Positions 25,978 to 28,900 of a stretch of 64,000 nucleotides of DNA are shown here, piece after piece. How positions within the stretch are numbered: the stretch's first letter is position 1; each line of letters starts with the position of its first letter. Made by a program: the position numbers and the translations under genes. Source of the stretch: Ascidiella aspersa (Eukaryota); contig OZ004609.1 of NCBI GenBank assembly GCA_963924565.1, positions 30,070,001 to 30,134,000 of the forward strand, in the 5' to 3' direction. A model generated the notes under the pieces. It made no database searches. It saw only the letters and a list, made by a program, of their open reading frames with translations, and was not told the DNA's origin.

Positions 25978-28900
25978 ATGTCGTCGAGGGCAATGCGAAA
26001 ACTGCACGGTCGTGGGGAAGTGATGAGCATCGCTGCTATGAGGGAGGAAAGTAGTGAAGATGAGGAGGAAGATACTGCAGAACAACCTCCAACCATCAAC
26101 AAGTTTTCATTGGTAAGATTTGTGTAATAATATAGTTTTTTTGGAGCATAATGGTTGGAGGTTGTACTAAGATGAAATAAGAATATCAAAGCCCATACAG
26201 AAGTAAGTATCATTTTGAACGTTTCCAATAACTCTTTCTTTCCTTTAGGGGTATTCGAAACATTCAAAATGATACCTACTTCTGTTTTTATCTTGTTTAT
26301 ATATATTTTTTTGGTCTTATCACTTACCAGTTTACTTTAAAATGAGGGTATTTTTTAATTTTAAATTTTGGTACTAATTTGGTTCTTTGTTTACTATTTT
26401 CTTTTTTCAACTAATGTTTTTAAGGCCTAAATACTTTATTTGATAATAAATTATTTCATAAATTGAAATTTGTAACATAACTAGTTGCATATCTTTGTGT
26501 AGATTATCTGAATTTATTTACTCAATAAAATCTCACTCTTTTTGTTCAGTTAAATGATGGAACTGATTCTGGTGCTGATCAGTCGGATGAAGTTCAAAAC
26601 AAAGATATACTGCAAACTGTTTCTAAAACATCAAGCGGGCAAAAACAAAAACGCAAGAAAAAAAAGAAAAAGAAACAAGCAAATCCGAACAGCAAAGACA
26701 CAGTATGTTTTATAGAAGCATTGTAAAAGCATATGTTTCTAAATGTTAGGTAACATGTCAGTATTAATAAAATTAGGTGCTATGGCTCAATCTTTCACCA
26801 ACAAAGTAGTAATTTCAAGTCTATACTATAAGATTTATGATTTGTGTGTTTTTAGTTAAATGAAGACATTGACAAACTGCTGGAAGTTATTGAAGATGAA
26901 CGCGCCAGCACCTCTAAAATATCTGCAAAGTTTTCTTCAAGTGACATGAATTCCAAATCTCTGAGATCTATCCTGACTGTGGAACACAGGTTATTACCTT
27001 CTCTTACTTCATACCATGTGTTGGAATAAATTAGTTAGGTAAAAGACTGCCAATACGGCACTAATGTATATGAGTTCTCTCGACTCGTTCCCTTTTGAGC
27101 CTGCATAGCTCAGTTGGTAGAGCGACGGTCCCGGCTTGACCGGAGGTCGTGAGTTCGAACCTCACTGCAGGCTAGTTGTTTTTCTAGTCTGCCCTGCTTG
27201 CATCATATATCAACAGATTTGGTGAGTCTGCAATGGCTTTCGCTTTACTAATTATAAACCGTAATCGTTAGTCAAAAGCAGCTTCAGAAGGGCTAGATCT
27301 CAGTTATTAACACACATATGTGTGCATGTTTCATTGAATAAATGATGTGGTACTGTGGATCCCCTTCAATGAGGATGCTTGTACTAACAGATTGAGCAAG
27401 CATTGGCTTTAAGGTTGTTTCTCGACTCGTTCCCTTCTGAGCCTGCACAGCTCAATTGGTAGAACGACGGTCCCGGCTTGACCGGAGGTCGTGAGTTCAA
27501 ACCTCACTGCAGGCTAGTTGTTTTTCTAGTCTGCCCTGCTTTCATCATAGATCAACAGATTTGGTGAGTCTGCAATGGCTTTCGGTATACTAATGATATG
27601 TAAGCCGTAATCGTTGGTCAAAAAGCAGCTTCAGAAGGGTTAGATCTCAGTTATTAACACACATATGTGTGCATGTTTCATTGAATAAATGATATGGTAC
27701 TGTGGATCCCCTTCAATGAGGATGCTTGTACTAACAGATTGAGCAAGCATTGGCTTTAAGGTTGTTTCTCGACTCGTTCCCTTCTGAGCCTGCACAGCTC
27801 AGTTGGTAGAGCGACGTGCCCGACTTGACCGGAGGTCGTGAGTTCGAACCTCACTGCAGGCTAGTTGTTTTTCTAGTCTGCCCTGTTGCATCATATATCA
27901 ACAGATTTGGTGAGTCTGCAATGGCTTTCGGTGTACTATATATGAGTTAGGTCTGATTTTTAAGCATATCTTAAAACCTGACTGTTCACAGTTTTTGATC
28001 TCGTAACTTGAAATAACTGTTAGTTAGAGAAAGGTTTGACCATTTAACCCGATATTTATTAATTGAACTGACTGGAATAAAAGTAAATACGTTTTGGATC
28101 TGTAAAACATTTCATACTGAAAGTTGTTTTTTAAAAAAATACTAAAGAAAAAATACAATTTGCTTATCAAATGAGGGATGATGAGACCTATTTTTACAAA
28201 CAAATATAATTGGTACTGGTAGTAAGACATTGTGAAAGACAATACAAACCAAAGGAAATATGTACTTTGTTCAAATATATTTTGTAAATAAAAATAATTT
28301 TTCAAAAGATCTCGACAAAATGTAAATCCACTCTTGACATTAATTATCATGCCATGCTCCTTAAATTAATATTCTAAATATGCAATATTTATTTCCATTG
28401 TATAATTTCCTACAGACTCCTGAATCCCGACAATGAACTGAGGAGGATCTTTGGGTCTCGAGCTCTCATGGAGGATGCATCATTCAGGAGGAGAACGCAA
28501 GGGAGAAGCAACAAGGGGGTCTGGCTCACCCAGCCCCAGAACAACTGGGTGAAGCTTGGGAAGACCGGGATTGACATGAACCTCATGGAAACAGTGAATG
28601 GGTGAGTTGGGTTTGGGTATCTGTAGTTTGTCTTAACGCCTCCTTAGAGAAAACGGTTACTGACAGGAATGTCCAATGTTATTAAATCCAACTTAATACT
28701 AACACTAGGTAGGAGCACTGCTTCTCATACTAAGAGATAATGACACACAATTTTTAAACGAATACTCGCATTTCATCCATGATTACTGATTAGTATTCCA
28801 ACACAGGATTTCATTCTTGAAAAATTCCCAACCTAAGGCAGTTTTATTGATTCCTAATCACTTAAATTGACAGCAAAACGTTTTAAAAAAATATCGGGTG

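Follow-up and report, generated by a model that had tools for sequence, protein, structure and literature searches.

A tRNA-bearing non-coding retroelement in Ascidiella aspersa with the insertion pattern of Penelope-like elements, and a possible route to its template through tRNA splicing

The window analysed here is a 64,000-nucleotide stretch of Ascidiella aspersa contig OZ004609.1 (positions 30,070,001 to 30,134,000); all features below are on its forward strand and in its own coordinates. A host intron with GT..AG borders (26990..28415), spliced out in 94 RNA reads, encloses a single retroelement insertion of 862 bp in sense orientation (27077..27938). This insert is flanked by a perfect 10-bp target-site duplication (TSD), TATATGAGTT, at 27067..27076 on the left and 27939..27948 on the right; among 20,000 random placements, 14 gave a 10-bp bracket lying no more than 2 nt from either insert end. 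It consists of 2.5 head-to-tail units of ∼347 bp each, namely unit 1 (27078–27419, 342 bp), unit 2 (27420–27766, 347 bp) and a partial unit 3 (27767–27938, 172 bp), and TRF reports a period of 347, 2.5 copies and a 94% match. The first tRNA-like module begins 21–22 nt inside the left end, and the insert has no A tail. An earlier sequence-only reading had described just this layout, with 2.5 tRNA-headed units inside one TSD, a start ∼20 nt before the tRNA head and no A tail, and is confirmed on these points.

Placed on the family-wide end map described below, the left end of the insert is an ordinary random 5′ truncation, and its right end, at unit position 172–173, is one of two preferred 3′ ends (site 1). 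The differences between units that had been remarked upon are real, with 19 between units 1 and 2, but they are mostly private decay: 12 of the 19 are private among the full units sampled, only one is common (present in 10 other units), and in young insertions the units are identical to one another.

Each unit includes a tRNA mimic, matching RF00005 at 27099..27173 (unit 1, 55 bits), 27441..27515 (unit 2, 40 bits) and 27788..27862 (unit 3, 42.7 bits). The mimic of unit 1 possesses A and B boxes, a 7-bp acceptor stem and a non-canonical anticodon loop, while the D arm and B box have decayed in unit 2, as has the anticodon arm in unit 3; across copies, the stems are 85–98% paired. The anticodon arm contains a single additional A.G step, and the loop (27131..27137 in unit 1, 27473–27479 in unit 2), which lacks the usual U33, consists of the palindrome CCGG and 3 further nt; in unit 3 (27820–27826) it is mutated. 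Each mimic is followed by a T5 run resembling a Pol III terminator (27179..27183, 27521–27525 and 27868–27872), and a T-run trailer of this kind is also seen in the host tRNA-Met genes.

Folding indicates that both flanks are complementary to the mimic. A leader, found at the same place in each unit (27424..27442 in unit 2), pairs with the D arm, and in each unit the 3′ acceptor strand of the tRNA forms a trailer hairpin with the sequence after the T run (27167..27192 in unit 1). These duplexes were tested on young and L067-type units: the leader–D-arm duplex was reached by 10 of 2,000 shuffles (3 of 2,000 in the second subfamily) and the trailer–acceptor duplex by 3 of 2,000 (19 of 2,000 in the second subfamily), and none of 10 flank tests on host tRNAs gave comparable duplexes. 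The leader is predicted to mask the tRNA 5′ half when transcribed, and the probability of the cloverleaf in the predicted circle is 0. A first fold had paired the leader with unit positions 205–219; that pairing was discarded, having a probability of 0 in the young circle and being broken in one subfamily.

Outside the tRNA part, segment B contains a long hairpin (27629..27724) that includes the second preferred 3′ end (site 2), and shows one compensatory pair change at the subfamily level, the second change being present in 10 of the 12 copies that have the first. The unit as a whole is structured (folding z −5.5). The stretch separating the two preferred 3′ ends (unit 173–268, here 27592..27687) resembles the tail of a Penelope-like retrotransposon (PLE) by end map and tail alignment, and its two edges are putative RT start sites.

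The family is dispersed and numbers more than 1,000 copies, segment B included. In the 308-Mb genome, 1,073 exact matches were obtained with a 19-mer of the unit, and the reversed 19-mer, used as a control, gave none; a second unit pattern has 1,257. Read depth, a rough lower bound, is ∼5,000 times the single-copy depth over the tRNA part and ∼1,200–1,400 times over segment B. The family has been recently active and is still young: most dispersed copies of the young subfamily, which has a 354-bp unit, are 98–100% identical. One locus, L249, is a chimera between subfamilies. In a sister-unit test, the neighbour was no more distant than the nearest outside copy for only 34 of 85 units, a result without power to separate a circle from an array because decay dominates. 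The sequence-only reading had named as contrary evidence that other copies be monomers starting at the tRNA head, with segment B unique flanking DNA; this was examined across copies and is not what they show.

I mapped the ends of 68 insertions, taken in positional order along one contig (70 loci, less 2 duplicates). They comprise 41 direct insertions, 27 tail-out inversions and no tail-in inversions. The outer 3′ ends cluster at two sites ∼96 nt apart, with 48 of 95 at unit positions 164–184 and 34 of 95 at 247–286; together these windows cover 18% of the unit and hold 82 of 95 ends. In 18 of the 27 tail-out insertions there is one end at each preferred site. The 5′ ends, by contrast with these fixed 3′ ends, are random, so that a random circular permutation of both ends, a possibility raised in the earlier reading, is not supported: only the 5′ end varies freely. 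TSDs in the family measure 10–15 bp; they reach at least 10 bp in 14 of the 68 insertions but in none of 60 control flank pairs, and at least 11 bp in 13 of 20 young loci. The earlier proposal of a single retro-insertion event within a dispersed family is supported.

The signature of PLEs is insertion as partial tandems, with a 5′ copy in inverted orientation and the tail confined to one end (Craig 2021, PMC8557442); that tail has been described as the stretch from one internal RT start site to the other (Frangieh 2024, PMC11167929). The Ascidiella element has two adjacent internal 3′ ends with the tail mostly at one end, 5′-truncated partial tandems along with inverted 5′ copies, and an initiation region whose sequence resembles that of an autonomous PLE. 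By all the features open to sequence analysis it qualifies as a non-autonomous PLE, for which mobilisation in trans is predicted, and I consider it very probable that a Penelope-like retrotransposon mobilises the family, a partner that the earlier reading had overlooked. MRC1 of Chlamydomonas (PMC8557442) and the short Penelope elements of Heliconius (PMC6685494) share with it the multicopy head-to-tail insertions, 5′ truncation, inverted 5′ copy, single-end tail and similarity to an autonomous family, but a tRNA module is not part of the descriptions given of them there. The tail is also longer, at ∼96 nt in the element and ∼82 nt in the host PLE family discussed next, against 30–40 nt in PMC8557442.

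The host genome contains several PLE lineages encoding an RT with a C-terminal GIY-YIG, and a minimal hammerhead is present in the pLTR of all seven host PLEs tested. One of these, family B, has the same RT and GIY-YIG organization. Its end map (42 loci, of which 20 were chosen by tail motif) places 21 of 60 ends at −44 to −21 and 33 of 60 at +45 to +58 relative to the ATG, centred at about −33 and +49; tail-out pairs are present, and the TSDs are mostly 10–14 bp. The 82-nt tail of family B aligns colinearly with unit positions 172–270, the first end falling on the first end and the second shifted by a few nucleotides. The alignment scores 40, against 13.1 ± 7.5 for random segments; with the young unit, 2 of 5,000 such segments did equally well, and with the older type 10 of 5,000. 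By z, family B is the best of 8 PLE junction regions for four of five real units. Since the similarity over a longer region is modest (z 1.8–3.3), and a profile search did not detect it, family B is best regarded as a candidate partner, or as a relative of the true one. No closer partner was found among the loci of the seven PLE lineages compared, a comparison drawn from two protein searches and one family search in which 116 of 187, 150 of 480 and 150 of 211 candidates were scored.

What RNA does this machinery copy? In a census of 143 arms ending at site 1 or site 2, 59 are at least one unit long, and of the 102 that reach the tRNA start 98 continue past it. Locus L305 holds 7.3 near-identical units within one 11-bp TSD, with an identical 1-nt deletion in all 7 T runs; similarly, an identical extra A is repeated in 3 units of L306, and both arms of L318 carry an identical substitution. 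The passage through the tRNA start and the near-identity of units in L305 point to a circular template. A circle is the simplest explanation of a template without an end, and the template is probably a circular RNA; the multimeric or circular template of the earlier reading is supported by the same data.

Retrozymes produce such circles with a ribozyme, and this was the analogy first drawn for the element. Their architecture is indeed reproduced: like animal non-LTR retrozymes (PMC7229834; bioRxiv 10.64898/2026.07.22.740005), it forms tandem non-coding units of a few hundred bp (∼350 bp) with long TSDs, and it is alike in its proposed rolling-circle copying and PLE dependence. The type I hammerhead in each unit that defines those elements, however, is missing. 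An Rfam search gave no ribozyme match at E up to 10 (hammerhead, twister, HDV-like and others), and the hammerhead core pattern occurs in none of 6 multimers, against 7 of 7 host PLE pLTRs. The tRNA mimic with its terminator, an addition relative to the retrozymes, thus sits where no ribozyme was found, as had been suggested from the sequence. Non-LTR retrozymes have now been argued to be non-autonomous PLEs themselves (Li 2026, bioRxiv 10.64898/2026.07.22.740005), and a term search of the main text of that study (Li, Clavereau and Pollet 2026) returned no mention of tRNA or Pol III.

The anticodon loop suggests a new route to a circle. Because CCGG is self-complementary, the loops of adjacent units can pair to give a bulge-helix-bulge structure (BHB), the motif that tRNA-splicing endonuclease (TSEN) cuts. 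The predicted structure consists of a 5-bp stem, a 3-nt bulge, a 4-bp helix, a 3-nt bulge and a 5-bp stem with a C-G proximal pair, and both cuts would fall at loop position 37/38, making the intron exactly one unit. Pol III would start at the tRNA mimic of unit n, leak through the first T run and stop at the T run of unit n+1. As the flanks are complementary to the tRNA, the resulting transcript, lacking leader n and trailer n+1, would leave exactly two tRNA halves unmasked, the 5′ one of tRNA n and the 3′ one of tRNA n+1. In the folding prediction these two halves form a single cloverleaf, with the two CCGG loops pairing as a BHB in the same RNA. By analogy with tricRNA biochemistry, TSEN would cut both bulges and release exactly one unit, which RtcB would close seamlessly. 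Within the circle, the leader and trailer helices are predicted to conceal the tRNA. A PLE protein would then prime inside the RNA at the two sites ∼96 nt apart, as the genomic pattern indicates, and roll round the circle, which would yield 5′-truncated multimers, tail-out inversions and TSDs of 10–15 bp.

The reading that I favour, at somewhat less than an even chance, is therefore of a non-coding element copied by a host PLE from circular unit-length RNA that is made by the tRNA-splicing machinery and not by a ribozyme. Circularisation by TSEN and RtcB, of the tricRNA type, is overall a possibility that I hold tentatively. A more speculative version is that a PLE passenger exchanged its hammerhead for a split, self-complementary tRNA mimic, so that a pair of units would imitate an intron-containing pre-tRNA from which TSEN and RtcB excise and circularise one unit as a template of rolling-circle retrotransposition.

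In read-through transcripts of L248, L305 and L067, the unconstrained MFE structure is the composite cloverleaf with the BHB, with a helix probability of 0.43–0.50. Of 33 real dimers whose loops are intact, 14, most of them young, likewise fold in this way, but the two decayed dimers of the window itself do not form the BHB in folding. Among the 16 palindromic 4-mers placed in the loop, CCGG is best (0.43, the next reaching 0.05), and none of 60 non-palindromic 4-mers reaches 0.2. Shuffling the leader lowered the BHB in 15 of 15 trials; 15 shuffles of the trailer did not lower it. A common loop variant alters the bulge and leaves CCGG intact. An older variant with a TAT loop gives a BHB probability of 0.02 whether it is set in the young background or kept in the majority background of its own type, and its isolated arms still co-fold as a BHB. 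The prediction depends on the copy and the parameter set, ranging from 0 to 0.72: for four dimers, the probability is 0.15–0.72 with Turner 2004, 0.22–0.29 with Langdon, 0–0.72 with Turner 1999 and 0–0.20 with Andronescu, and in two of the four sets it is near zero for most dimers. The composite acceptor pairing is not special to the element, as 3 of 4 neighbouring host tRNA pairs form it too. The palindrome was noticed post hoc, and a 4-nt palindrome has a prior of 1 in 16.

In flies, tricRNA production follows rules of a C-G proximal pair, a 3-nt bulge and 6-nt spacing (PMC6614914), all of which are present in the predicted fold of the dimer, where 6 nt separate the C from the 5′ cut. The putative substrate shares these features and a mature tRNA body with tricRNAs and with pre-tRNAs that contain an intron (Schmidt et al., 2019, PMC6614914), and its product would likewise be an RtcB-closed circle; the intron, in contrast, would be the whole unit of a mobile element, brought about by the pairing of two copies. 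Further differences of this predicted substrate are a fully paired helix, which reduces tricRNA yield (PMC6614914), and an arm with an extra step. This extra A.G step departs from the canonical TSEN ruler, which runs from the tRNA body to the cuts (PMC8479045; review PMC10485636). Xenopus TSEN cuts a BHB within a non-tRNA RNA (review PMC10485636). RtcB is the likely ligase closing animal retrozyme circles (PMC7229834). In algae and archaea, circularly permuted tRNA genes (Soma 2014, PMC3978253) also share a BHB between separated tRNA halves and a circular product, and in vitro cleavage at the BHB of a tandem tRNA repeat has been obtained with an archaeal enzyme (PMC3978253). Those genes yield functional tRNAs and are immobile, whereas the circle of the element would be a template for retrotransposition with its tRNA fold hidden.

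The splicing model requires read-through of the T5 run. At its predicted cut there is no significant excess of 5′ ends (6 against 3.1 expected, p 0.10), and those of 38 genome-wide matches are spread flat over positions 53–60; the lack of a pile-up is neutral for a ligated circle, and lends it no support either. In one stranded RNA-seq run the two strands are represented about equally, with no end pile-ups and a low signal per copy, in reads that cannot distinguish circles from tandem units and from a library whose selection is not on record; it lends the splicing model no support.

The same PLE-driven element might instead obtain its endless template from cuts by RNase P or RNase Z at every tRNA of a read-through multimer, followed by a ligase or by template-jumping of the RT, or else from an unrecognised ribozyme in segment B; I consider this explanation as a whole unlikely. 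The intact 7-bp acceptor stem and T arm are features recognised by both enzymes (PMC3978253); the maintained pairing of the stems, the structure and compensatory change of segment B and a mild excess of 5′ ends at unit positions 316–354 (22 against 13.8, p 0.026 uncorrected) are in its favour as well. The ribozyme searches above, on the other hand, gave no match, the 143-arm census shows no build-up of 5′ ends where the tRNA begins (5 against 4.4 expected) or where it ends (3 against 5.3), and the unit junctions are seamless, without CCA or duplication. With the cloverleaf predicted to be absent from the circle, these counts speak against the earlier suggestion that an RNase P/Z substrate takes the place of the ribozyme. 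Both variants leave the CCGG loop and the tRNA-masking flanks unexplained, and tRNA-splicing endonuclease fits the anatomy of the element better than RNase P/Z.

It may also be that no circle exists, and that the PLE enzyme copies linear read-through RNA of genomic arrays, made by Pol II via introns or by leaky Pol III, the tRNA being a promoter or passenger. Multi-copy transcripts have been proposed as the template of PLEs, whose hammerhead is dispensable in vitro (PMC11167929); the RNA reads, on both strands, resemble passive read-through, L249 is chimeric, and the long array of L305 could be the source of copies with its deletion, which L317 shares. Arrays copied in this way would shrink at every round, yet young insertions reach 3.0, 3.1 and 7.3 units. 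Among all 43 exact matches of the young-subfamily motif no array is longer than L305, no master array of more than 3.1 units was found in the assembly for the common young variant, and the young loci examined have no common 5′ flank. Given also the arms that run past the tRNA start, I regard this explanation as unlikely.

A tRNA-derived SINE is a monomer that begins with its tRNA and finishes in a LINE-type tail; Cassandra is characterised by LTRs, a 5S module and TSDs that are short. The element shares with these SINEs and with Cassandra TRIMs a Pol III-type module in a non-autonomous retroelement, but has neither the start, tail and monomer form of the former nor the LTRs, 5S module and short TSDs of the latter. 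A LINE-driven tRNA SINE, a Cassandra/TRIM-type LTR element (as the earlier reading had entertained) or a local duplication, which the tRNA head with A and B boxes, the TSD and the A-B-A look might suggest, is contradicted by the end maps and highly improbable: there is no A or repeat tail and no monomer starting at the tRNA, the ends are not TG..CA, the TSDs are longer than the 4–6 bp of Cassandra/TRIM-type LTR elements, more than 1,000 dispersed copies carry segment B, and there are two internal 3′ ends with tail-out inversions.

No tRNA-bearing PLE passenger and no TSEN-circularised retroelement was found in the literature listings searched. The family indicates that PLEs, as LINEs do, carry tRNA-bearing passengers, and a module of ∼250 nt appears sufficient for PLE copying. 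As a small and recently active substrate, it makes the origin of PLE tandems and tail-out inversions testable. If the splicing model is true, this would be a natural mobile element that hijacks tRNA splicing for ribozyme-free circles, and a natural counterpart to engineered tricRNA vectors; the self-complementary anticodon loop would then offer a simple sequence test for more such elements.

A second tRNA-headed family, hinted at by loose read ends, turned out to be a local satellite, and a metagenome scan for relatives returned 4 ordinary tRNAs. In sequencing runs labelled as other organisms the element is present in small shares, two of them giving near-identical short pieces, which do not bear on its range.

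The host genome holds at least seven lineages of Penelope-like elements (PLEs) with a C-terminal GIY-YIG domain and minimal hammerheads (L103-L120, L121-L122 and L195-L227). Tail length varies across these lineages between about 36 nt and about 82 nt, and is longer than the 30–40 nt given for PLEs in PMC8557442. Two of the lineages have a hammerhead core in which a variant, GTAA, replaces GAAA. Family B, the PLE family considered a candidate partner of the ribozyme-free element, is present on one contig (C2, 30.63 Mb) as a tandem of 3.4-kb units, at least three in number and nearly identical. 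At four loci (L106, L109, L190 and L216) a copy of the element lies no more than a few hundred bases away from an autonomous PLE copy; given the copy number of the element, chance alone could account for this proximity.

The longest young insertion of the element is locus L305 (G000:C9:13803342-13805906), and in all of its units the T5 terminator is cut to T4, a deletion that L317 shares. This shortening could ease Pol III read-through, which could make L305 a source locus.

A long tandem array of tRNA-Met-type genes, spaced at 154 bp and with mutated anticodons in some of the genes, was observed on contig C1 (G000:C1, from 26980000; L293-L304). These genes have the T arm and the T-run trailer in common with the element's tRNA, and differ from it in the D and anticodon arms. 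At G000:C5:31810365-31823819 (L268-L292), pieces of the element's tRNA, leader and trailer make up a local satellite whose basic period is close to 126 bp, and all 45 exact motif matches fall inside it.

At the insertion in the window, the stretch 27057-27076, which comprises the target site and the adjoining bases on its left, is similar to the sequence that the element itself has at RT start site 1, one of its two preferred 3′ ends (unit position 172-173). In many other copies the 3′ end of the element overlaps the target-site duplication by 1–5 nt. The host exons flanking the insertion (26859-26989 and 28416 onward) are expressed and spliced across it, and the peptide that they encode may resemble TCF25.
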